From contig JBDHAB010000042.1 of the NCBI GenBank assembly GCA_039588295.1, positions 1 to 50,298 on the forward strand: a DNA stretch of 50,298 nt. The letters are read 5' to 3'. Positions 788 to 46,478 of this stretch are shown piece after piece (positions within the stretch are counted from its first letter, which is position 1; the number at the start of each line of letters is the position of its first letter). Position numbers and translations under genes: made by a program. The stretch is from Gemmatimonadota bacterium. Its GTDB lineage: Bacteria; Gemmatimonadota; Gemmatimonadetes; Gemmatimonadales; GWC2-71-9. A model generated the notes under the pieces. That model searched no databases. It saw only the letters and a program-made list of their open reading frames with translations, and was not told where the DNA came from.

Positions 788-3700
788 ATGGCCACACACC
801 CTCACCTCAAAATCTTCGGCCCTCCGGTGCTTTGCGGCAGCGACGGGCGCCCAGTCCGGTTCCGCACCCGAAAGCAACTCGGGCTGGTGGTCTATCTGGC
901 GCTCGAGACCCGTATCCGGCCGGTCTCGAGGGATCTACTTGTCGAGCTGTTCTGGCAGACCGATTCCCCAGACCGGGCACGCCACTCGCTATCCCAGGCG
1001 CTCAGTGCTATCCGCCAGGTTCTGGGTAGCGGAGCGATTCCTCGAGGCGGTCGCGACGTACAGCTGAACACCACCCTGGAGACTGATCTCGACGCACTTG
1101 CGGGAGGCACCGACCTACCTGCGCAGTTCGAGCATCCACTTCGTGATCTGGATCGCAACGGCAGCGCCGAGTTTGCCCATTGGGTCGAAGGCATGAGGGC
1201 GCGCTGTCTGCGACAGATTCGAGAGAGCCTTGCACGCCAACTGAGCGAAGCAAGGGAACGGGGAAGCGTCGGCCAAGTCTACGAACGCGCAGCGAAGCTC
1301 TACCAGGTGGATCCACTGAGCGATGCCGCAGCGCAAGCGCTGGCCGAGGAGCTTCTGCTGAAGAGCGACGTGCCCGGAGCCATTCGCTTGCTCCGCTCGC
1401 ATCACGAACGCGTCCGATCCGAACTCGCCTGCAATCCACATCCGGATCTCGAACGGTTGCTTCGGCGAGTCGAAAGCGGATTGGTGCCAGCAGCCAGTGG
1501 CCTCGGAGCGAATTGTCTTGAGCCCCGGCGGCGGCGACCGTTTGTGGGACGAGAGCGTGAGTTGTCCCGTCTCGAGTCTTGGTGGGTCGAAGCCCAACGC
1601 GGAAAGCTGCGAACAGGCCTCTTGGCTGGTCCGACAGGAGTCGGCAAGACCTCCGTCCTGCGCCGCTTCACAACAGCAGTTGCGGCCCGTGCAGGCGCAG
1701 TGTGGGACGTCGCCTGCCAGGAAATGGGCCGCAACATCCCCTTCGCTGCCGTCGCCGACCTGATTCACGTCGTGTGTCACGACCGCGGTGTCGGCGGAGC
1801 CGACCCACGCTGGCTCGCGGAGGCAAGTCGCGTCGCGCCAGGGATACGGTCCGTGTTTACCGGAATCCCCGACCCGCCTCCGGTGCCGGCTGAATCGGTT
1901 CGCTTACGTTTGGCCGAGGCACTACTGCGAATGTTCGAAACAGTTGCTGATGGCGGTCCGATGATGCTGGCTCTCGATGATCTTGCGTTCCTGGATCCGG
2001 CCAGTCGAGATGTTCTACATGTACTCCTGCGACGGCTGCAGTCGCACCCTGTACTGCTTGTAGCGTCGTCACGCACTCCGGAGGCGACGAATCTCGCTCG
2101 GCGGGATGGCGGGGACATAGGAATGCCATGGCACGAGGTACTCGTTCTCCCACCTATGGCGACAGCCGAGGTCTCCGCTGTCGTCGATGGACTTTGTGGC
2201 GAGCAGGGGACTCTTTCGAACGAGACTCGCAAGGCCTTACTCGAGCTATCAGACGGGAATCCGTACCTGACCGAGATGCTAGTGTCGGACTGGCTGCGGA
2301 ACGCCGGCCAATCACTCGTCGCCGCACACAGACGGGGCGAAGGCAATATCGGCTCGTTGCACCTGCCTGATACTATGCGGCGGGCCTTCGAACGGCAGTA
2401 TCACGGGCTGACCACTGTCGCTGAACGAATGCTCCACCTCATGGCTGTCGCGGGACGTCGCGTTTCGATCACGGAAGTTCACAGCCTTCTCGGCATCGCC
2501 AAACCGGCAGCGAACCTCGCCGCGCTTGAACTGTTCGACCGAGGCCTCGTTCGTCTCGAGGACGGCAGGCTTGGCTTCACCAACGAGTTGCACCGTTCCT
2601 ATGTGTACGCGGCGATGCCAGAGGAGAGCCGGAAATTCTATCATGGACAGATGGGGGAGGCGTTGGCGACCGGCTGTTGCGCCGGTGACTTTCAGCGTCT
2701 TTTCGAATCTTCCCAACACTTCCTCAGGGGAGGGTCCACAACTGCGGCGGCTGATTCGTTAGTAGGAGGAGCCGAGCTTGCGCTTGAACGAGGCGCACCC
2801 AAAGAAGCGGAGCAAGCACTACGCCGAGTCGGTCCGCTGTGTCGGGATCGGAATACAGCCCGAATCACCACACTTCTTGCAGAGGCACTTCTCGCCCAGG
2901 GTCACCACAGCCGCGCTCTGGCTGCCGCCGACAAGGCGAGCGCATTTGCCAGATCCCCAGCCGAGGTCGCCCGGGTCGCTGCCATAAGTGCGGAGGCAAT
3001 CCTGTTCGGAAGACTTCGAGACCGAGCTGGCATCGGCCTGGCCGTACGATCTGCACTCAGTGAAGCCACCAAGGGAAACGACGAGCAGTGTCTCGCACGC
3101 GCACTGCTACTTAGCGCCGAGGTGGCGTACGACCAGGTTGACTCCGACTCGCTGAATAGCGTTGCGCGAGCGGCAGCGAATATTGTCAAGGAAGCCAAGA
3201 ACCCTTTCGTCTATTCCTCAGCTCAAATCACACTCGCCTACTGTGCCCTTGTGACCGGGCGTAGCCGTGCCGCTGCACGTCTCTTCAGCAGTGCTGCAGG
3301 TAGTCTTCGTGCGCTATCGAGGGAAAGCGATCTTCGACGAGCGCTCAACGGGCTCGGTATTGTGTTGACTAGTCTCGGCGATTGGGAGCACGCAGTTAGC
3401 TGCTTTCGGGAGGCAATTCGACTGGCGGAAAATGCGGGAGATTTCCATACACAAAGCGTGCTCTGGGATAACCTCGCAGTGCTGTACGAAGACACTGGTT
3501 CTTTTCACGATGCCGTCAAGGCACGGAGGACTGCCTTCCAACTCTCTCAGGGCTCCACATCGCCAAAACGGCTGGTCGAGCTATTCACAAATTCAGCGTC
3601 GCTTTCGATTACCCTCGGTGCGTTCTCGGAGGCAGCCTTGTGTCTAGAACAAGCAGAGCGGTTCAGCAAACAGGCGCAGCTGCACCGCCTCACCGTCTCA

Positions 3701-4183
3701 ATACTTCTTGCCCGAGCTGACTTGGGAATCGCGCAGCATCAGGACGACAGTGCCTGGGAGAACATCGAAACGGCAATTGCCGTGGCAGGAGAGCACGGGG
3801 AGAATGCACGCGGAATCGCGGATTTTGAACGGGCTAGACGACACTTTATCTGGGCAACTCAGGGGTTTGACACATTCGTTGCATGTGTGGATGACAGACA
3901 AGCTTCACGATTGGATTTGCGGATCTCACAACGACTAGAGCTGAAGGCGCTGGAGGAATGGGTGTTCCAACGTGAAGGCAAGCCCCTGCGTCGAGAATCT
4001 GTTGTGAACGAACTCCGGCAACGAGGCATATACGGAGCCATAGCCCACCTCGTTGCACTTCACATCTATCCAGGGAAGTTGCCCACCCGGCGGGCGGACG
4101 AATCTAGCGTCCGACTAGTGAAACGCGCCTTTCCGGAACACGATCAGCGGCTCGCGCCAAGAAGAGTTGGCGTTCCTCTATGA
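788..4183 (+). CDS. SARP-family (wHTH-BTAD) transcriptional regulator with STAND/AAA ATPase and C-terminal TPR-like repeats
   Basis: N-terminal LKIFGPP...LVVYLALE...SRDLLVELFW...ARHSLSQALSAIR (SARP wHTH); BTAD-like DPLSDAAAQAL; FVGRERELSRL, Walker A GPTGVGKT, Walker B LALDD, GNPY motif; helical repeats such as RALNGLGIVLTSLGDWEHAVSCFREAI. ATG at 788 preferred over TTG at 767. Confidence 0.9.
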   Translation: MATHPHLKIFGPPVLCGSDGRPVRFRTRKQLGLVVYLALETRIRPVSRDLLVELFWQTDSPDRARHSLSQALSAIRQVLGSGAIPRGGRDVQLNTTLETDLDALAGGTDLPAQFEHPLRDLDRNGSAEFAHWVEGMRARCLRQIRESLARQLSEARERGSVGQVYERAAKLYQVDPLSDAAAQALAEELLLKSDVPGAIRLLRSHHERVRSELACNPHPDLERLLRRVESGLVPAASGLGANCLEPRRRRPFVGRERELSRLESWWVEAQRGKLRTGLLAGPTGVGKTSVLRRFTTAVAARAGAVWDVACQEMGRNIPFAAVADLIHVVCHDRGVGGADPRWLAEASRVAPGIRSVFTGIPDPPPVPAESVRLRLAEALLRMFETVADGGPMMLALDDLAFLDPASRDVLHVLLRRLQSHPVLLVASSRTPEATNLARRDGGDIGMPWHEVLVLPPMATAEVSAVVDGLCGEQGTLSNETRKALLELSDGNPYLTEMLVSDWLRNAGQSLVAAHRRGEGNIGSLHLPDTMRRAFERQYHGLTTVAERMLHLMAVAGRRVSITEVHSLLGIAKPAANLAALELFDRGLVRLEDGRLGFTNELHRSYVYAAMPEESRKFYHGQMGEALATGCCAGDFQRLFESSQHFLRGGSTTAAADSLVGGAELALERGAPKEAEQALRRVGPLCRDRNTARITTLLAEALLAQGHHSRALAAADKASAFARSPAEVARVAAISAEAILFGRLRDRAGIGLAVRSALSEATKGNDEQCLARALLLSAEVAYDQVDSDSLNSVARAAANIVKEAKNPFVYSSAQITLAYCALVTGRSRAAARLFSSAAGSLRALSRESDLRRALNGLGIVLTSLGDWEHAVSCFREAIRLAENAGDFHTQSVLWDNLAVLYEDTGSFHDAVKARRTAFQLSQGSTSPKRLVELFTNSASLSITLGAFSEAALCLEQAERFSKQAQLHRLTVSILLARADLGIAQHQDDSAWENIETAIAVAGEHGENARGIADFERARRHFIWATQGFDTFVACVDDRQASRLDLRISQRLELKALEEWVFQREGKPLRRESVVNELRQRGIYGAIAHLVALHIYPGKLPTRRADESSVRLVKRAFPEHDQRLAPRRVGVPL

Positions 4184-5438
4184 GTCGACGAATGGCGGTG
4201 CTCCGCTTGAAAGCCTCAACCACATCGGGATCGAACTGCGTCCCAGCGTAGCGATCGAACTCCCTGATCACGTCCTCATAGGTGCGAGCACCCCTGTACG
4301 GCCGATCCGTCATCATCGCGTCTGCAGTGTCGGCAACCATGACGATCCTGGCACCTATCGGAATCTCGTCGCCAACAAGACCGTCCGGATAGCCGCCGCC
4401 ATCATAGTGCTCATGGTGGCACCGAACGCAGCGCTCTACATATCCTCGGAGGCTCGAGATGGTCCGCACCAATTCCGCACTTCGCCCAGGATGAGTCTGT
4501 ATCAGTTCGCGCTCAGTCGGTGAAAGGTCATCGCCCTTCCTAAGAATGGCCGCATACTCTCCGTAGATCTTTCCGACATCGTGCAGAAGTGCGGCAGTCT
4601 CGATTTGTTCAATGTCCCTAGCTGGAAGTCCTAGTGATCTCGCAATAGCTCTGGCGAAGGTCGCAACGCGAACAGAGTGACCCGAGGTATAGGGATCCCG
4701 AGCTTCGATAGACTTCACCATGAGCTCAAGGAGCTCGCGGTTCGTCTGTTCAAGCTGGAGATTGACGTGGAGTGCGTGCCGCACGAAGAAGAGTGGCACG
4801 ATGACCAGGAGTAGTCCTGACAGCTGGAGCTTGATCCACAAGAACGCGAGGAGCGGAGCCAGGGAGCTGGAAAGGACATCATGGACCAGACCCTTGACAA
4901 CGATCTGACTCCACGCTTCGCCCAACTCCGAGCGGGAACTCATGGCAACCGCCGTCGCCGCAGCTCCATTGCTCACCAGAAAATACAGGACGGTGGCGCC
5001 CAAGAACGCAGGCACCTTCATGGCCGGTTCGGCGATCCAAAGTGTTCCGCCCGCGGCGACGTAGACCCACCCTGCAAAGCCAACGGCGACGATTTCCTTC
5101 GCAGTGTTGTGAAGGATCTTAATGAGGGGCTTCCTTCTGACGACGGTCTCGGCCACCAACTCGGTTGTGCCCGCGATGACCATTGCCCACGGCGGACCGA
5201 GAAGAAGTACGGCGGACAGATAGGCGACGAAAGAGACAGCACTTGTCGCAGTCCCGACCCTTAGCCGCAGTGAGAAGAACTCGGCTAACAGGCCTAGCGC
5301 CAACAGTGCAACGAATGTGTTCCAGAACGGAATGCCCGCAGTTGAGACATCAAACTCTGCACTGGCCAGCATTGCGCCTGCCGCCAGGCAAACCGCGATC
5401 ACATAGGCGACTATGGCCGTCGGGTGTTTGATGGACAT
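4104..5438 (-). CDS. Membrane-anchored HD-GYP cyclic-dinucleotide phosphodiesterase with multi-TM N-terminal sensor domain
   Basis: About 7 hydrophobic segments in the first ~220 aa, then EARDPYTSGHS, LHDVGKI, HHEHYDGGGYPDGL, ADTADAM and RPYR; metal-ligand motifs intact. Confidence 0.93.
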   Translation of the reverse strand: MSIKHPTAIVAYVIAVCLAAGAMLASAEFDVSTAGIPFWNTFVALLALGLLAEFFSLRLRVGTATSAVSFVAYLSAVLLLGPPWAMVIAGTTELVAETVVRRKPLIKILHNTAKEIVAVGFAGWVYVAAGGTLWIAEPAMKVPAFLGATVLYFLVSNGAAATAVAMSSRSELGEAWSQIVVKGLVHDVLSSSLAPLLAFLWIKLQLSGLLLVIVPLFFVRHALHVNLQLEQTNRELLELMVKSIEARDPYTSGHSVRVATFARAIARSLGLPARDIEQIETAALLHDVGKIYGEYAAILRKGDDLSPTERELIQTHPGRSAELVRTISSLRGYVERCVRCHHEHYDGGGYPDGLVGDEIPIGARIVMVADTADAMMTDRPYRGARTYEDVIREFDRYAGTQFDPDVVEAFKRSTAIRRLIEERQLFLARAADRVPERRVSLVGR

Positions 5439-5468
5439 CTAGCTGAGGGGGTGCCCCTGGAGAAGAAG

Positions 5469-5546
5469 CTACCAACTGACGTTCCCGCCGGCCAAGAAAT
5501 ACCGCGCGAGAGCGCTGAAGAACGCGGCTAGCCAGCCTAATGCCAT
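5469..5546 (-). CDS. Small hydrophobic peptide MALGWLAAFFSALARYFLAGGNVSW (25 aa), putative signalling-peptide precursor
   Basis: ATG at 5546 to TAG at 5471-5469; strong SD AAAGGGGGTGA (5564-5554) 7 nt upstream; ends 30 nt before the HD-GYP start on the same strand; below the ORF-track length cutoff. Confidence 0.75.
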   Translation of the reverse strand: MALGWLAAFFSALARYFLAGGNVSW

Positions 5547-5553
5547 GAGAGCC

Positions 5554-5564
5554 TCACCCCCTTT
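5554..5564 (-). promoter_or_regulatory. Shine-Dalgarno site of the 25-aa peptide
   Basis: Minus strand reads GAAAGGGGGTGAggctctcATG. Confidence 0.75.
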
Positions 5565-5962
5565 CCGCAGTCCCTAACGACCTGCTTGGGTAGTAGCGCA
5601 CCCCGCTACGGTACGCCCGAGGCTCCGCTCGTTACTGCTGACCGATCCGCTCCGCTCTCCTTCTCCGGGGGCCCCCTAATCTCCTTTCCAAAGCTTCTTG
5701 GTCCCGTTTTGCGCGCAAGACGATTTTCTCTGTGAGACGCTCGCGCGCCGAACGGCTCCTACCTGCTATGGCCAAGGAACAAAGCGGGCGGGTCCAGCTG
5801 GGGACATCCCAGCCCGGCCAGCCCTCAGCCGAAAAAACCAATCTATGTATCCGCCACCCGGCGGTCCGTCACTGCGAGACCACCAGCGGCGTAGGATTAC
5901 GACCCAACAGCGGGGCTTAGAACCTACACCCCGATCGGCCTGTCCACTAGCCCCCCACCCGC

Positions 5963-6676
5963 CTAGGCCGGCGTCCGGGCCTGGAGCCACCGGTTGGTGG
6001 CGTCCAGCACCGCCAGGATCGCCGCACGCTCGGCACTCTCGCGCAACGGGGCGGTCCCCATCACCATCTCCGGATCGCGCCCTTCCACGACCTGCACACC
6101 CACCACCACGAGCCGCTGCTCGAACGCCTCCACCACCTTCACACCCTCCAGCTCCATGGCCCCCACCGCCAACGGCTGCTCCAAGACGCCCAACGCCGCC
6201 CGCGCCGCGGCCTGCATGCGCGCACGCGTGGTGTCGGCCACTTCCTCCTCCGCCTGCGCCTCCGCCCCACCCACCATCAGGGTGACCCTGACCCGCGTGC
6301 GATGCTCGCCCACGGAGACCATCTCCAAATGCTTGAACACCACGCTCCGGCGAATCGCCTCCACCCGGACCGCCTCCTGATCGAGCGCCTCGATGGGACG
6401 GACGTCGGCCGTCTGCGCCACACTGATCTTGCGATGATCCACCTTGAGGCCGAGCTGCGCCAGGAGGGCGCTCTCGACGTTGCGGACCACCTGCTTGGGC
6501 GAGAGCCCCGCATGCGTGAGCACGTGGACCGCCGTCACCTCACCGATCGGCGAGACCTCGACCCGCGCCGACAGCACGTCCTGCAAGCTCGTCAACAGGT
6601 TCTCCGCCCGCTTCACTCCCCACGGATCGGGGGACCGCGCGGCGTCGGGCGGCGTCGGAGGCGTCTCGGTCCTCAT
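5963..6676 (-). CDS. Conserved hypothetical two-domain protein
   Basis: High-GC3 ORF with globular-looking sequence VHVLTHAGLSPKQVVRNVESALLAQLGLKVDHRKISVAQ and C-terminal AILAVLDATNRWL; ATG at 6676 (alternative GTG at 6691). Confidence 0.8.
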   Translation of the reverse strand: MRTETPPTPPDAARSPDPWGVKRAENLLTSLQDVLSARVEVSPIGEVTAVHVLTHAGLSPKQVVRNVESALLAQLGLKVDHRKISVAQTADVRPIEALDQEAVRVEAIRRSVVFKHLEMVSVGEHRTRVRVTLMVGGAEAQAEEEVADTTRARMQAAARAALGVLEQPLAVGAMELEGVKVVEAFEQRLVVVGVQVVEGRDPEMVMGTAPLRESAERAAILAVLDATNRWLQARTPA

Positions 6677-6738
6677 CCCTGGATCGCTCACTCGCAGTTC
6701 TCCACTGACGTCACCGATCGTCCACCACCACAGACGAC

Positions 6739-8478
6739 CTAGGTTTGCAACGTGATCGGGCCGGTGTCCGATTCCCCCTCGGACTCCCCGAAGACCACCA
6801 AGTTACCACCGGCCGCCTTCGCCCGATACAGGGCCCGGTCCGCGCTGCGCAGCACATCGTCCGGCAGACGGTTCACCGGATCGTAACTGATCGCCCCCAC
6901 CGACGCTGTGACGCGGCGCTCATCGTACCCCAGCGACTGGCTCACCCGCTCGACCGACGACCGCATGAGCTCGCCCACGTGCAGCACCCCCTCCCGCCCC
7001 GTTCCCACCAGCACCACCACGAACTCGTCGCCCCCATAGCGGACCGCGACGTCCGTGGCACGCACGACCCGCCGGATCTCCCGCCCGATCGCCGCCAGCA
7101 AGATATTGCCGGCCTGGTGCCCGTGCACGTCGTTGATCTCCTTGAACCCGTCGAGGTCCAAGAACAGCACGCCGCACGGCTCCTGCGTACGATGGCTGCG
7201 CGCGATTTCCTGCGCCAGCCGATCCTGCAACACGCGGTAGGTCGACAGCCCCGTCAGATCGTCCACCGCCGACTGCTTCCGCGCCTCCGCCGCCTTCCGT
7301 TCCTGATACGGCGGACACTGACGGAACGTCGCGCGACCGCGCATCAACGCCCGGGCAAACTCCCGGCAACCCGCGTAGCCGCACGCCCCACAGTCCCACG
7401 GCGCACCGCTGGGCGCCGTACCGATCTCGCTCACCACCCAGTCGAGATCGCCCGTCGAGGGCTCCTTCCCGTCCGTCGCACCCTCGAACGTGGCGGCCAC
7501 CGGGACCCACACCCCGGGATCCACCACCGGCGTGGGGCTGCGCGGAGGCTCGGCCTCCTGCGCCAACCGGCGCCGGTGGAACAGCTCCTCGCGCGGACCC
7601 AGCAGCGGATGGTCGAGACACCCCTCACAGGGCAACAGGTCGACAAACCCGAGATCGACCTTGTCCACCACCACCGCCCGCGCGATCACGTCCAGCGCGG
7701 TGATGCCCCGCACCTTGCGGAACCGACGGCTCGTCTGCGGCTCGACCGCGAGCACCGGCAGCGGCAACCCGCCGGGCGTGCTCACATACCGCTGGCGCAC
7801 CCCCGGGATGCGCGTGAAGTAGCGCGACTGATCGGCTACCACCACCCCGCGCCGCCGCAACAACTCCTCCAACTCGGTGAACGTCAGAACCGCATCGACG
7901 TCCTCGTTCCCATCCGCCACGCATACACCCGTATACACGATGCTCGCGTCCCGCCCGTGCGTCGCGCGGAGGTACGCGGCCTCCGCCGCCAGCGGCGTCA
8001 TGATCGGCGCGAGATACGGCACGAGTTCGGGATAGTCGTGCCGGATCTTCTCCACCACCACCGGGCAGGTCGAGCGGATCCGCGTCCCCCACCCGGGATC
8101 GTCCAACAGCCGCCGGTACTCCTCCGCGACCAGCTCGTCTCCCACCACACCCCGGGACACGACCGCGAACCCCGCCGCATGACACGCGTTGATCACCTGC
8201 TCCGGCGCGTGTGGGTGGAAGTGGACATCCGCCTCCACGCTCAGCACCAGGATCGCGTCACCACGCTCGGCCAGCGCTAGCCCCTGGCTGAGGTCCCCCA
8301 CGGCGTCGATCGCGTCGTGTGGGCACGCCGGCACGCACGCACCGACACGAATGCACGACTCATCGACGATTCTGACCGTCGTGCCGTCCACCGCGATGGC
8401 CTGAGAGGGACACACACGGACACACGCCAGGCAGGCGACACACTTGTCGTTTACCTCAAACCGCACGGCCCGCCCCAC
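6739..8478 (-). CDS. Diguanylate cyclase with 2x[4Fe-4S] ferredoxin, [FeFe]-hydrogenase large-subunit-like and FeS sensory domains
   Basis: CVACLACVRVCP and CIRVGACVPACP; hydrogenase-fold motifs RSTCP, TGVCV, DLLPCEGC; DCGACGYAGC...CPPY FeS domain; DDLTGL, DLDGFKEIND, RATD I-site, YGGDEF, ADRALYRAK. Start GTG at 8478 or 8466. Confidence 0.9.
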   Translation of the reverse strand: MGRAVRFEVNDKCVACLACVRVCPSQAIAVDGTTVRIVDESCIRVGACVPACPHDAIDAVGDLSQGLALAERGDAILVLSVEADVHFHPHAPEQVINACHAAGFAVVSRGVVGDELVAEEYRRLLDDPGWGTRIRSTCPVVVEKIRHDYPELVPYLAPIMTPLAAEAAYLRATHGRDASIVYTGVCVADGNEDVDAVLTFTELEELLRRRGVVVADQSRYFTRIPGVRQRYVSTPGGLPLPVLAVEPQTSRRFRKVRGITALDVIARAVVVDKVDLGFVDLLPCEGCLDHPLLGPREELFHRRRLAQEAEPPRSPTPVVDPGVWVPVAATFEGATDGKEPSTGDLDWVVSEIGTAPSGAPWDCGACGYAGCREFARALMRGRATFRQCPPYQERKAAEARKQSAVDDLTGLSTYRVLQDRLAQEIARSHRTQEPCGVLFLDLDGFKEINDVHGHQAGNILLAAIGREIRRVVRATDVAVRYGGDEFVVVLVGTGREGVLHVGELMRSSVERVSQSLGYDERRVTASVGAISYDPVNRLPDDVLRSADRALYRAKAAGGNLVVFGESEGESDTGPITLQT

Positions 8479-8516
8479 CTCGGCATGTGACCCGTGGTAA
8501 CGGGCCGTAGCGGCTT

Positions 8517-8545
8517 ACTATGTAATGCAACTCAAGTTCTGTCAA
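8517..8545 (-). promoter_or_regulatory. Sigma70-type promoter for the Fe-S GGDEF gene
   Basis: TTGACA (8545-8540), 17-nt spacer, CATAGT (8522-8517), ~40 nt upstream of the start codon. Confidence 0.55.
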
Positions 8546-8833
8546 ATGTTTGGACCATTCCGACTCGTTTGATGCGTGAGGTCGCGCTCACTGTCCCACC
8601 GGCACCTCGGAGCACGACCGCGACCAGGCGCACCTGTGCCGCCTTTTCGCCCCAGGGTTGCAAGACCAAAGCCAGTCAGGAGAACGCTTTTCCGCCCCGT
8701 TTGGCACTCACAAACGGGCTGGAATTCCTAGAGTTTTCGTCGGATTGTGGTGCGGTTACCACAAATTCGTGCACCCGGGCTGCCGACCAGCGGCCTGCGG
8801 CGCAACAGTGTAGACGGCCGGTCTCCAGCCCGT

Positions 8834-10387
8834 TCAGCCCAGCTCGTACTCTTTGATCTTGCGGTAGAGCGTCCGTTCGCCGATGCCTAACTTCTGCGCC
8901 GCCCGCCGCCGGTTCCCCTTCGTCTCCTCGAGCGCGGCCTCGATCGCCGCCCGCTCGACGTCCGACATCTTCATCCCGGAGCGATAGACGACCGTCGCCG
9001 CCCGCTCAGGCTCCGCGCGTGGCTCGCCGCCCCCGTCCCCCGAGGGCTCCACCTCCCACGCCTCACCCACCGTGATCTCCTCGGCGGCAAACCGCCGCGG
9101 AGTCTCGATCACCTCCACCCGCCGAGGCTCCTCATCGATCCGCCGCCGCAGCTCCTCCATCTGGAGCTTCAGCTCCATGAGGCTCCGCAGAATGAACTCG
9201 AGCTCCTGGCCGGACACGTCCCGCCCGGGGGCCTGTACCCGCATGGGCAGCAGCCGCGTGCCCCCCTCGCGCACATCCTGCGGGATGTCGCTGGGCCGGA
9301 TTTCCCGTCCGGGCGCCAGCACCACCATCGATTCCACCAGATTCCGCAGTTCCCGCACGTTTCCCGGCCAGTGGGCGTTCACCAGGATCTCCACGGCCTC
9401 CGGCGTCATGCCGCGGAACGAGCGTCCGTGCGTGGCACTCAACTCGCGCACGAACCGGCGCACAAGAATCGGGATGTCGCTCTTACGCTCCCTGAGCGGT
9501 GGGAGATACACGTTCAGCACGTTCAGCCGGTAGAACAGGTCGTCGCGGAACTCGCCCAGTGCCGTCGCCTCCTTGAGCGGGCGATTGGTCGCCGCGATCA
9601 CGCGGACGTCGACACGGATCGGCGCCGCCCCACCCACCCGGAAGAACGTTTGGTTCTCCAACACGCGGAGCAGCTTGACCTGGGTCGACGGGGGAATCTC
9701 GCCGACCTCGTCCAGGAACAGCGTGCCGCGGTCGGCCAGCTCGAACCGGCCGAGCCGCCGTTCGGCGGCGCCGGTAAACGCCCCCTTCTCGTGACCGAAC
9801 AGCTCGGACTCGAGCAGCGTCTCGGGTAGCGCCGCGCAGTTGACCGTGATGAACGGTCCCTCGCGCCGCGGGGAGAGATGGTGGATCGCCTGCGCGACCA
9901 GCTCCTTGCCGGTTCCCGACTCGCCCTCGATGAGGACCGTGCTCGAGACCGGCGCCATCTGCTCGATCTTGACGAGCACTTCCTGAATCGCGGCGCTCTC
10001 GCCGCGAATGCCCGTGTGTTCCTGGAGGCGCCGTCGCCCGATGAGCCGGCGGGCGGCCGCGACGACGTCGTTGGGATCGGCCGGTTTCACCATCCACGCG
10101 GTGAGCCCGACCTGGCGCGCGAGATGCGCCGGATCGGGGTTCGCCTCCTCGATGAGCCCCAGCGTCGAGATCGGCACGGTACGCGCGAGCCGAATCAGCG
10201 TATCCGAACGACGTTCCTGCAGCGCGCCGGTGAGAATCACGACGTCGGGAGCGGCGCGTCGGAATACCTCCGGCGCGTCGTCCTGCGACGAGACCAGCAC
10301 CGTTTCGAATTCGGCCGACTCGAACGCGGCGTTCACCGGCACGGCCGTCTCGAGATCGTCCATCGTGAGCAGTACGCGATCGGTCAT
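8834..10387 (-). CDS. Sigma54-dependent Fis-family activator with atypical receiver domain
   Basis: [50 protein letters not shown] and C-terminal HTH LGIGERTLYRKIKEY; receiver reads DVVILTG where the phospho-Asp is expected. Confidence 0.92.
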   Translation of the reverse strand: MTDRVLLTMDDLETAVPVNAAFESAEFETVLVSSQDDAPEVFRRAAPDVVILTGALQERRSDTLIRLARTVPISTLGLIEEANPDPAHLARQVGLTAWMVKPADPNDVVAAARRLIGRRRLQEHTGIRGESAAIQEVLVKIEQMAPVSSTVLIEGESGTGKELVAQAIHHLSPRREGPFITVNCAALPETLLESELFGHEKGAFTGAAERRLGRFELADRGTLFLDEVGEIPPSTQVKLLRVLENQTFFRVGGAAPIRVDVRVIAATNRPLKEATALGEFRDDLFYRLNVLNVYLPPLRERKSDIPILVRRFVRELSATHGRSFRGMTPEAVEILVNAHWPGNVRELRNLVESMVVLAPGREIRPSDIPQDVREGGTRLLPMRVQAPGRDVSGQELEFILRSLMELKLQMEELRRRIDEEPRRVEVIETPRRFAAEEITVGEAWEVEPSGDGGGEPRAEPERAATVVYRSGMKMSDVERAAIEAALEETKGNRRRAAQKLGIGERTLYRKIKEYELG

Positions 10388-44867: not shown

Positions 44868-46478
44868 TCATCCCGCCGTTTCCTTGACGACTTCCTCGAG
44901 TGTGGTGATACCCTTGCGGATCTTCTGCATGCCGTCCGAGCGAAGCGTGAGCATTCCCTCTTTCACCGCCTGCTGCGTGAGCTCCTCGGTCGACCCGCCC
45001 CTGAGAATCATGCGGCGCAGCTCGGGACTCAACGCCATCACCTCGTAGAGGCCCTGACGGCCCTTGTACCCGGTGCTGCCGCACATGTCGCATCCCTCAC
45101 CCCGATAGAAGGTAATGCCGACGGCCTCTTCCGGTTTGAGGCCCAGGGCGCCCAACTCCTCGGCGGAGTACTCGTGCGGTGCCTTGCAGTCCGTGCAGAT
45201 GCGTCGTACCAGACGTTGCGCCACGATGAGGTTCACGGCGCTCGCGACGTTGAACGGCTCGATGCCCATGTCGACCATCCGGGTGATCGTCGAACCTACC
45301 ATGATGATGTTGGGATCCTGACGCAAAAACGCTCGGAGCGCGGCGGCGAACGTCATCCCGATATCGGTCCGCACGAGCACCTGGTTGATGCCGTGGATGT
45401 TGTACTCGACCGGGTCCTCCGCGGTCATGATGTTGACTTCCAGCGTGTTGATGCGAGAGAGCGCTGAATACAGCGTCGTCGTCTTCCCCGAGCCCGTCGG
45501 GCCGGTCACCAGCACCATCCCGTACGGGTTCAGGATCGCCCGCAACAGGTCTTCCTCGGACTGCGGCTCGAAGCCGAACTTCTGTAAGTCGAGGGTGAGG
45601 TTTCCCTGGTCGAGGATCCGCAGCACGATCTTCTCGCCGAAGATCACGGGCAGCGTGGAGACGCGGAAATCGATCACGCGCTTGCCCATCTTCAGCTTGA
45701 TGCGTCCGTCCTGCGGGACACGGCGCTCCGCGATGTTCAAGTTCGACATGATCTTGACGCGGCTCGTGAGCGCCGCCCGGAGCTTGATCGGCGGCTTCAT
45801 GACTTCCTGCAACGCACCGTCGACGCGGTACCGCACCCTCAGTTCTTTCTCGAACGGCTCGATGTGAATGTCGCTCGCGCCGCGCTTGACCGCATCGGTG
45901 AGAATGCCGTTGATGAGCTTCACGACCGGCGCGTCGTCACCGATCTGCGTTGGCTGATCCTCTTCCTCCGCTTCCTCGATGACCTCGAGTTCTTCGTCCT
46001 CCATGTCCTTCAGCAGCGTCTCGAGTTGAGCGTCGGTCTGCTCGTAGTAGCGCTCGATCGCCGTGCGGAGCGTGTACTCGCCCGCAATCACCGGGAAGAT
46101 GTCGAACCGCGTGATGAATTTGAGATCATCGATCACGGTGACGTTGGTTGGATCGGCCATTGCGCACGTCAGCGTGCGCCCCTCCCGCTTGAGCGGGAGC
46201 ACGGTGTGCTTGAGCGCGACGTCCGCTGGGATCAGCTTGATGATCTTGGTTTCGACCTCGAACCGCGTCAGGTCAACCGCGGGCACCCGGTACTGCCGGG
46301 CGAGCATCTTGGTGATCTCGATCTCCTGCACCAAACCGAGCTTGACCAGCACGTAGCCCAGGCGCATGCCCGTCGCCCGCTGCTGCTCGAGCGCCTGCTG
46401 GAGCTGCTCGCGGGTGATCAGACCTTCCCGCACCAGGAGGTCACCCAGTCGCTCTATGCTTGCCGCCGCTGTCGCCAT
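44868..46478 (-). CDS. pilB: Extension ATPase PilB with MshEN domain; apparent internal in-frame deletion (possibly non-functional or an assembly artefact)
   Basis: RLGDLLVREG/RLGYVLVKLG, ASDIHIEP, GPTGSGKTTT, AEDPVEY, tetracysteine motif; RQDPNIIMVG joins directly to STITRMVDMG. Confidence 0.93.
   Translation of the reverse strand: MATAAASIERLGDLLVREGLITREQLQQALEQQRATGMRLGYVLVKLGLVQEIEITKMLARQYRVPAVDLTRFEVETKIIKLIPADVALKHTVLPLKREGRTLTCAMADPTNVTVIDDLKFITRFDIFPVIAGEYTLRTAIERYYEQTDAQLETLLKDMEDEELEVIEEAEEEDQPTQIGDDAPVVKLINGILTDAVKRGASDIHIEPFEKELRVRYRVDGALQEVMKPPIKLRAALTSRVKIMSNLNIAERRVPQDGRIKLKMGKRVIDFRVSTLPVIFGEKIVLRILDQGNLTLDLQKFGFEPQSEEDLLRAILNPYGMVLVTGPTGSGKTTTLYSALSRINTLEVNIMTAEDPVEYNIHGINQVLVRTDIGMTFAAALRAFLRQDPNIIMVGSTITRMVDMGIEPFNVASAVNLIVAQRLVRRICTDCKAPHEYSAEELGALGLKPEEAVGITFYRGEGCDMCGSTGYKGRQGLYEVMALSPELRRMILRGGSTEELTQQAVKEGMLTLRSDGMQKIRKGITTLEEVVKETAG

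Follow-up and report, generated by a model that had tools for sequence, protein, structure and literature searches.

We describe here a signalling module of a Gemmatimonadota bacterium, which lies at positions 788 to 8,545 of a stretch of 50,298 nucleotides (contig JBDHAB010000042.1 of assembly GCA_039588295.1, positions 1 to 50,298 of the forward strand; hereafter the window). Four co-directional genes on the minus strand encode a cyclase with Fe-S clusters and a GGDEF domain (Fe-S/GGDEF), a protein of no named family that we call hyp, a hydrophobic peptide of 25 residues and a membrane-bound HD-GYP phosphodiesterase, and a convergent regulator of the STAND type faces them. An earlier reading of the DNA without database searches (the sequence-only reading) had proposed these genes, and they were confirmed at the same positions; its hyp frame, 5963-6676, is the same open reading frame (ORF) as 5963-6691, with a later start. 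What it had overlooked, namely the leader RNA and the role that hyp likely plays, is the most distinctive part of the module. From the promoter downwards, the operon contains:

8517..8545, minus strand: sigma-70-type promoter, TTGACA-17-CATAGT, a sequence site that likely drives the operon
6739..8478, minus strand: Fe-S sensor cyclase with Fer4, Fe_hyd_lg_C, FeS and GGDEF domains (Pfam), an optional member
5963..6691, minus strand: hyp, with an N-domain (residues 22-95) and a C-domain (115-238); model from 93 sequences with a predicted local distance difference test (pLDDT) score of 91
5657..5677, minus strand: 5' arm of a long-range RNA helix enclosing leader and peptide ORF, from the ranking of cognate arms
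5602..5656, minus strand: four AGCGGR repeats from a repeat scan (5651-5656, 5646-5651, 5624-5629 and 5602-5607)
5549..5625, minus strand: RNA junction with a hairpin (5596-5616) and a flank of the third repeat (5619-5625) that pairs with 5549-5555, putatively masking the Shine-Dalgarno (SD) sequence at 5554-5561
5469..5546, minus strand: hydrophobic 25-residue peptide with a Trp end, MALGWLAAFFSALARYFLAGGNVSW, and a strong SD upstream
5446..5468, minus strand: 3' arm of the long-range helix, between the peptide stop and the HD-GYP start
4104..5438, minus strand: MASE9-type membrane sensor with several transmembrane segments, joined to an HD-GYP phosphodiesterase with an RxxR motif (Pfam HD_5)

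The order of hyp, peptide and MASE9-type HD-GYP, facing a STAND-TPR gene, recurs across the Gemmatimonadota, and the module is a real, widespread and so far undescribed signalling unit. We found no description of it in the literature, a search that did not cover supplements such as Fig. S5 of the MASE9 preprint, which possibly shows neighbourhoods. Our loci come from the best 80 of 594 HD-GYP relatives, which a scan of 8 of the 64 parts of the genome collection had yielded, and those related to the window module are almost all from this phylum. The conserved neighbours are hyp, the HD-GYP gene, the STAND gene, an NtrC-like activator and the Fe-S cyclase. Co-occurrence in other genomes had been set beforehand as a test that could refute the sequence-only reading, which withstood it, as the genes are widely found together. 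All 56 loci with enough DNA have hyp upstream, and 62 of 65 have the convergent STAND gene on the downstream side. Of the 48 loci that span the stretch from the activator to hyp, 21 carry the Fe-S cyclase and 27 do not, and the gene adjoins none of 20 extended loci outside the phylum, where one unlinked match, to GGDEF only, was seen. Since this gene is optional, the redox arm is a lineage add-on and not the core member it had been taken for; the core consists of hyp, the leader, the peptide and the sensor-HD-GYP. Within the phylum, all 20 genomes without hyp also have no MASE9-type sensor; five genomes have hyp with an adjoining sensor, and five have hyp or a distant paralogue without a sensor. 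Five short contigs labelled as other phyla carry loci of the Gemmatimonadota type (L047, L037, L054, L061 and L034; L numbers are our locus handles) and are probably misbinned.

The TTGACA promoter of the sequence-only reading was found again. The window site alone is not above chance, with two TTGACA-type sites in 11 kb where 1.5 are expected. It is conserved, however: of the 33 loci that have the Fe-S/GGDEF gene, 28 show a match of at least 9 of 12 positions upstream of it, compared to 1 of 62 on the opposite strand. None of 56 gaps between hyp and the leader, taken as approximate windows, holds a promoter site, and the search for an intrinsic terminator inside the operon found none in the coding strand that leads from hyp to the peptide.

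The peptide is under coding selection: among six copies from the same genus, silent variation in 14 codons stands against a changed residue in two. A hydrophobic peptide of 16-37 residues, led by an SD, was found in all 72 loci with upstream DNA, and in 65 of them Trp is within the last three residues. Outside the phylum, we searched for MASE9 (PF20972) in three other phyla, which were entered via loci from Dehalococcoidia, Solirubrobacteraceae and Edaphobacter. Of the loci from the first two, 13 of 25 and 12 of 26 have a similar peptide ahead of the MASE9 gene, compared to 0 and 2 in the opposite-strand control, and these peptides often end in A-G-A/G-x-x-W/F. Some of the MASE9 proteins with such a peptide have no HD-GYP motif, and one (L116) carries GGDEF, which argues that the peptide follows the sensor and not the enzyme. 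No peptide family was found for the 48 of 66 peptides that were long enough to scan. In two low-GC genomes without hyp or repeats (L157 and L170), the peptide gene is present as two identical tandem copies before the MASE9 HD-GYP gene.

We compared distances between regions in 47 of the 85 peptide-bearing loci, namely those with full hyp and STAND, leaving out one duplicate and one divergent locus. With the other five regions removed, the distance between peptide tails follows that between MASE9 domains (partial r 0.23), compared to 0.14 for the TPR part and -0.05 each for the HD domain and hyp; the permutation p-values of this test are overstated, since kin are not independent. Moreover, the complex of the homologous L051 pair, whose peptide has 35 residues, was predicted with a score of 0.50, while the best of three controls reached 0.01. 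Between runs the contacts agreed to at least 96%, with a partner pLDDT of at least 68. The co-folding mark is reached by 116 of 157 solved pairs and 2 of 215 mismatched pairs, and of these only 18 solved pairs and both mismatched ones lie at 0.60 or under, so that the support from this complex is weak. Based on the predicted complex and this tracking, the peptide is likely a ligand or partner of the MASE9 domain, as the sequence-only reading had suggested for the membrane domain.

The phosphodiesterase itself is intact. Its metal ligands and its GYP motif (E245, H254, H286-D287, H316, H341-H342, G349-Y350-P351 and D370) are each kept in 47 of 47 homologues, and the HD-GYP model matches PmGH with a Z-score of 24. 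The RxY[K/R] motif, which is linked to cyclic di-GMP (c-di-GMP), whereas RxxQ/N shifts the specificity toward cyclic GMP-AMP (cGAMP), reads R379-P-Y-R382, with R in 46 and K in one of the 47 homologues. In the model, the sensor adopts the fold of the S-components of energy-coupling factor (ECF) transporters: RibU aligns over 160 residues (Z 13.9, root-mean-square deviation (rmsd) 3.1), and over a dozen S-component entries, all of one family, score Z 10.5-13.9, a range that approaches the level helical bundles can reach by chance. Homologues 62% identical to the window protein carry PF20972. MASE9 has been described as an orphan domain whose ligand is probably bound inside the membrane (Galperin and Chou, 10.1101/2021.11.05.467447, main text).

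The sensor half also diverges more than the regions on either side, with a median distance of 0.73 compared to 0.42 for the HD domain and 0.48 for hyp. Its GC content at third codon positions (GC3) is low (0.65 vs 0.88), and the GC3 of the HD-GYP gene, which is low in nearly all of the high-GC relatives, lies below that of hyp in 56 of 62 loci. In L044, L045, L052, L206, L210 and L211 the HD half has a high and the MASE9 half a low GC3; the low GC3 of the MASE9 half would fit a swapping of peptide-sensor cassettes. A recent horizontal insertion of peptide, HD-GYP and STAND genes, at which the drop in GC below position 5900 might hint, was rejected on the synteny and on the low GC3, which is found throughout the phylum. 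In many loci outside the phylum (L298, L299, L300, L301, L305 and L306) a second, more divergent HD-GYP gene follows the first, in some cases with its own MASE9.

Upstream of and around the peptide ORF lies a covarying RNA element (5446-5677). Its long-range helix pairs the stretch before the repeats with the bases directly 3' of the peptide stop. Ranked in the 60 loci whose upstream DNA spans 170 nt or more, the cognate arm takes first place in 21 and one of the top three places in 33 (control median rank 24.5), a ranking inflated by the relatedness of the loci. The HD-GYP start lies 22-60 nt downstream of the peptide stop and has almost no free SD, with a median SD energy of -2.2 kcal/mol vs -11.7 kcal/mol for the peptide (43 loci). 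AGCGRR repeats are present in 2-5 copies in 62 of 64 Gemmatimonadota leaders, with at most one on the opposite strand. The spacings of the AGCGGR repeats vary (10, 12-16, 20-24) and are unphased, and the fourth repeat of the window (5602-5607) sits in a hairpin loop; the repeats are likely protein-binding sites. The junction helices pair the flank of the third repeat and a CU tract with the SD region. In 27 Gemmatimonadales-type leaders, chosen for their shared hairpin, 96% of the junction cells are paired, compared to 46-59% in slid controls, and none of 500 shuffles reaches the observed level. Two-sided changes occur in 8 of 19 pairs, six of them within the hairpin, from which most of the junction signal comes.

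The covariance models of Rfam 15 gave no match in window positions 5400-9000 at E-values up to 5, and none in 14 loci with hyp. In its own genome this leader is the only one among three repeat clusters, and one exact pattern gave no match in viral contigs. TRAP and CsrA were considered as binders of the repeats and rejected, since neither the number of repeats nor the GAA variants agree with their consensus (their genes were not searched). About 700 additional bases lie between hyp and leader in L025, L029, L030, L031, L036, L042 and L217; in L025 they encode a 200-residue protein with a helix-turn-helix-like start, and in L029 and L030 a receiver-like ORF.

The protein hyp is encoded in 97 of 97 genomes of the host family and has over 1,200 representatives at an E-value of 1e-10. 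No family was found for it in Pfam, NCBIfam, PDB sequences or PADLOC, and its matches in the Atlas are nameless Gemmatimonadota clusters. The N-domain has a small alpha/beta fold, common to BolA and to the C-domains of CDF proteins and acyl-CoA ligases (Z 7.7-9.6), which we take to be KH-II-like; Glu30, His56, Glu73 and Asp85 are conserved in it. The C-domain shares the fold of the regulatory domain of LeuA (Foldseek E 2.6e-6; Z 8.1) and citramalate synthase (CMS; Z 9.8, rmsd 3.1, 110 residues aligned), with no sequence match in PDB or Pfam; in LeuA and CMS this domain binds branched-chain amino acids where the dimer partners meet. In hyp its conserved residues are R158, R205, G212 and N233-R234-W235, of which R158, R205 and N233-R234-W235 would fit an anionic ligand. 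Because the models join a KH/BolA-like to a LeuA-type regulatory domain, hyp likely acts on the leader as a regulator that binds RNA and is gated by a ligand. Most relatives have similar paralogues of a single domain; in the genome G000, stand-alone copies of the C-domain (about 140 residues) lie at C2:22741-23202, before a lytic transglycosylase gene, and at C59:10838-11206.

A connection between hyp and the repeats is seen outside the phylum, in 33 genomes with a peptide-MASE9 locus. At least two repeats are present in the peptide leader of 13 of the 15 genomes with hyp (the genome of L163 was scored via L227), and in a 14th (L223) repeats are visible by eye, while none of the 18 genomes without hyp shows any. 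In these genomes hyp lies upstream of the locus, head-to-head with it, downstream or far away, which argues that the link is more than mere adjacency. Repeats thus imply hyp; the converse fails, as hyp also occurs outside the module. A c-di-GMP-II riboswitch (RF01786) was found in 7 of the 18 loci without hyp and in none of the 14 loci with hyp that were scanned. Its 3' end lies about 90-110 nt before the peptide, and six of the matches exceed the gathering score, the seventh having 53.4 vs 53.5. Since the riboswitch takes the same place in relatives without hyp, and given the arginines of the C-domain, c-di-GMP or a related nucleotide would by analogy be the most likely ligand of hyp. The riboswitch directly precedes peptide and MASE9-HD-GYP in L119, L120, L123, L125, L126, L134 and L138. 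In four riboswitch regions (L308-L311) a stand-alone gene for a winged helix-turn-helix (wHTH) and BTAD protein lies just upstream, in two of them with a separate TPR gene.

Our best reading, which we hold with slightly more doubt than belief, is that the RNA-gated, Trp-ended peptide is the ligand of the MASE9 HD-GYP and that hyp is the RNA-binding gate, forming a feedback switch on c-di-GMP breakdown. The conserved promoter suggests that the operon would be transcribed as a single RNA starting near 8545. In a resting fold, for which the covariation supports the pairing, the ribosome site of the peptide would be paired and the HD-GYP start would lie at the end of the long helix. Once its LeuA-type domain is occupied by a small ligand, most likely c-di-GMP or a related nucleotide, hyp may then bind the repeats and open the junction, and ribosomes completing the peptide would melt the helix and make the HD-GYP start accessible. 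Embedded in the membrane, the peptide might place its Trp tail in the S-component-like pocket of MASE9, a binding that is weakly predicted, and so set the phosphodiesterase activity. In one lineage the Fe-S cyclase would have joined the operon and added a redox-dependent synthesis arm, whose product is uncertain. As for the STAND-TPR protein, it likely belongs with the module as an activator of transcription and senses another, fast-changing ligand.

Several observations weigh against this reading. The window protein has no PF20972 match at an E-value of 0.1, while homologues of 60-64% identity carry the precomputed domain. Terminal Trp is missing in 7 of 72 peptides, only 1 of 27 MASE9 loci in the phylum entered via Edaphobacter has such a peptide, and the near-identical peptides of L202 and L203 stand beside MASE9 domains that are 35% apart. 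The fold of the hyp N-domain is a common one, with its best matches among acyl-CoA ligase and metal-transporter C-domains (Z 8-9.6), and the domain carries no net positive charge. The SD-masking helix P1 is nearly invariant, with three of its five pairs unchanged, and its cognate test is weak (median rank 14 of 60). Outside the phylum, the seven loci with a riboswitch probably belong to a single clade, and the 33 genomes provide few independent contrasts only. Four genomes of family f4 (L323-L326) have two nearby hyp copies and no adjoining MASE9 gene; the downstream copy is followed by neither a repeat cluster nor a peptide, and a genome-wide search of two of them found no MASE9. Six further hyp homologues also have no adjoining peptide.

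Of the redox-plus-quorum switch proposed by the sequence-only reading, the peptide stood as a candidate ligand, while the redox arm proved optional and the quorum-like part is not supported as stated, as no processing or export gene is conserved. A quorum version would have the peptide, or a processed tail of it, leave the cell and be read from outside by MASE9, with kin-specific, swappable peptide-sensor cassettes, and we regard it as rather unlikely. The basic and then hydrophobic N-terminal part and the A-G/E-G-x-x-W tail do resemble a signal peptide followed by a mature part, most clearly in other phyla. The variability of MASE9, well above that of the flanking regions, and its low GC3 resemble the variable part of comQXP, and the tandem identical copies of L157 and L170 would suit such a system. 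The conserved neighbours include no peptidase, exporter or modifying enzyme, however, the shortest peptides (14-16 residues) leave scant room for both leader and mature part, and Trp stands 0-2 residues from the end, with no linked prenyltransferase. It also appears unlikely that the peptide is a purely cis-acting leader, which on being translated would open the long helix and so permit the HD-GYP to be made, while its product has no target. Such a role would explain why the HD-GYP start has no free SD and why the helix arm begins directly after the peptide stop, and it would agree with the wide variation in length and sequence of the peptide. The purifying selection on its residues speaks for a functional product, as do the hydrophobic pattern and terminal aromatic residue, which are kept across phyla even with a riboswitch or an unstructured leader, the tracking of MASE9 but not the HD domain by the tail, and the predicted complex.

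SARPs bind heptamer direct repeats, and the STAND protein might use its SARP-type wHTH to bind the AGCGGA repeats as DNA, with hyp otherwise employed, for instance in metal or Fe-S handling like BolA and CDF C-domains. In many cases the first gap measures 10 and the last 22, values close to helical turns; 6 of the 20 extended out-of-phylum loci, as well as L296, have wHTH-BTAD or STAND-TPR genes in their vicinity; and the N-domain of hyp conserves Glu30, His56, Glu73 and Asp85. We nevertheless find this improbable: the middle spacings (12-16 and 18-35) show no phasing, one copy sits in the loop of a covarying hairpin, the repeats are strand-specific, and L308-L311, with a SARP gene directly upstream, have no repeats, which follow hyp instead. 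Most improbable to us is that the peptide induces the STAND protein through its TPR sensor, as in RRNPP or MalT systems, with HD-GYP as the regulated output. The STAND gene adjoins in nearly all loci of the phylum and the TPR distance also tracks the tail, yet adjacency is cheap given the conserved order of the terminus region (PMC11237797). In L062 and L067 the peptides are identical and the MASE9 domains differ by 7%, while the TPR regions differ by 48%; L202 and L203 differ by one tail residue and their TPRs by 63%; and most peptide loci outside the phylum have no STAND gene nearby.

Upstream of hyp, the catalytic residues of the optional cyclase (D441, D443, N449, R480 and GGDEF 482-486) and its I-site RxxD (R473-x-x-D476) are intact. 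The guanine-selecting Asp is replaced by Asn458 here, and by Asn in 36 and Ser in one of 37 homologues, while the other five GGDEF proteins found in the same genome have Asp at this position. The product is uncertain because of this Asn and need not be c-di-GMP, as had been assumed. Among the 37 homologues, hardly any variation is seen in the ferredoxin cysteines and those of the extra Fe-S motif, although in the window copy one Cys of the 2x[4Fe-4S] ferredoxin is Val45. In the hydrogenase-like core Cys 138, 186, 284 and 287 are all present; of these, C138, C284 and C287 each survive in just 13 of the 37 homologues. No Lys is present at 183-192, in the second H-cluster motif. HydG gave no match and HydF none over the cut-off in the 96%-complete genome (HydE was not searched); a Group C sensory [FeFe]-hydrogenase would be expected to have this Lys, and HydE/F/G maturases in its genome. 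A redox or oxygen sensor is plausible and a hydrogen sensor unlikely.

Around the operon, three further genes were considered:

788..4183, plus strand: convergent regulator with wHTH, degenerate BTAD, STAND NTPase and TPR parts (Pfam AAA_16 and TPRs)
8834..10387, minus strand: NtrC-like sigma-54 activator (Pfam), a conserved upstream neighbour
44868..46478, minus strand: PilB with MshEN (PF05157, E 5.6e-23)

For the convergent regulator, proposed as BTAD-STAND-TPR, the 80-nt overlap with the HD-GYP 3' end, AAA_16 and the TPRs were found, and the BTAD part is degenerate (Pfam E 0.71; wHTH, Trans_reg_C, E 0.002), while its homologue in L074 reaches 8.6e-8 for BTAD. The stop-to-stop distance to HD-GYP is not conserved (-80 to +1810, often -4). 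The Walker A motif GxxGxGK[T/S] has its K in 47 of 47 homologues, and most have the DD of Walker B. The TPR part is the most variable region of the module, with a median distance of 0.84, and since it changes while the peptide stays the same, the protein likely senses something else. That STAND-type genes occur in other arrangements near loci outside the phylum speaks for a functional connection. A comparison with named defence systems gave generic TPR matches only. No sigma-54 consensus site was found in the intergenic stretches scanned. From near 5900 down through positions 1-760 the high GC of the window does not return; positions 1-325 hold a truncated ORF without a family, and 326-760 have no assigned gene.

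The MshEN-bearing PilB of the sequence-only reading is indeed in the window, 36 kb from the module (39-47 kb in three relatives), and a link between them is possible from its motif. This motif, the tandem RLGxxLxxxGLxxxxxLxxxLxxQ, is complete at the N-terminus and the sole such match in the genome. Near 45300, 31 in-frame codons are missing, among them the Walker B glutamate and a following His-containing segment. One relative's PilB keeps this glutamate, and the open frames of relatives have 575-625 residues; the gap is either a real lesion or an assembly error or collapse. In Gemmatimonadota the order of genes has been described as conserved in a region close to the terminus that is strand-biased (PMC11237797), which may explain part of the synteny, the pilus cluster included.

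In its widest form, our proposal would be a cross-phylum c-di-GMP circuit. hyp, KH-like and of LeuA fold, would be a "protein riboswitch" that binds c-di-GMP, reads the AGCGGA repeats and is evolutionarily interchangeable with the c-di-GMP-II riboswitch. It would release an RNA-caged, Trp-tailed peptide, the kin-specific ligand of a transporter-derived HD-GYP sensor, and a redox-dependent, possibly non-canonical dinucleotide would enter the loop in Gemmatimonadales from the cyclase, a fossil hydrogenase whose base pocket is altered. As a whole we consider this fairly unlikely. If hyp is gated by a nucleotide and replaces a riboswitch, c-di-GMP receptors would gain a new class with it, and RNA and protein would form a regulatory pair of a new kind. 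MASE9 is an orphan sensor in many phyla, and a cognate peptide encoded upstream makes its ligand directly testable; we found no peptide-gated cyclic-dinucleotide phosphodiesterase in the literature. The Asn-signature cyclase bears on whether GGDEF enzymes make further dinucleotides. Moreover, Gemmatimonadota are abundant soil bacteria whose signalling is little known.

Among known systems, the closest to the sensor are the MASE9-HD-GYP proteins TM1467 of T. maritima and HdgA of S. venezuelae (PF20972), with which it shares the membrane domain and HD-GYP. The main text of the MASE9 preprint (10.1101/2021.11.05.467447) names no ligand, does not contain the word "peptide" and mentions neither an upstream micro-gene nor an RNA leader or S-component fold. 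The cyclase resembles Group C sensory [FeFe]-hydrogenases (HydS; PMC5037454) in the fusion of Fer4, a hydrogenase-like core and FeS to a signalling output; unlike HydS, it has no Lys in the second motif, and core cysteines are lost in 24 of 37 homologues. With the Hypr enzyme GacA, which belongs to a group of cGAMP-forming GGDEF enzymes that carry Ser/Thr in the base-selecting position (PMC6456294), it shares the GGDEF rather than GGEEF motif and a non-Asp selecting residue, which here is Asn. Leader control of a small membrane protein is also described for C. difficile (PMC13724677), where riboswitches govern membrane proteins of about 57 residues; no MASE partner is mentioned in the text searched. 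In contrast to c-di-GMP-II (RF01786) systems, the window leader has no Rfam match and appears to be protein-bound.

The STAND protein shares the order wHTH-BTAD-NTPase-TPR and intact Walker motifs with regulators that we take to be its nearest kin, AfsR/SARP-type STAND proteins and MalT (Pfam AAA_16, TPR_MalT); it differs from AfsR/SARP in a BTAD below the cut-off, in a TPR part that changes fastest, and in its partner, a c-di-GMP module instead of an antibiotic cluster. TRAP, HutP and CsrA/RsmA are ligand-gated or loop-reading proteins that act on short purine-rich repeats and alter access to ribosome sites. The module differs from them in having 2-5 copies of AGCGRA, KH/BolA-like and LeuA-type folds and, as target, a micro-peptide in a closed helix. 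In ComX-ComP, AgrD-AgrC and MgrB-PhoQ, a short peptide gene lies beside a membrane sensor whose input part changes along with the peptide. No ComQ- or AgrB-type processing or modifying enzyme was found among the conserved neighbours here (unlinked genes were not searched). Unlike the ComX and Agr pairs, the module has a cyclic-dinucleotide phosphodiesterase as its output and a receptor that is not a kinase, with a sensor predicted to be of the S-component fold.

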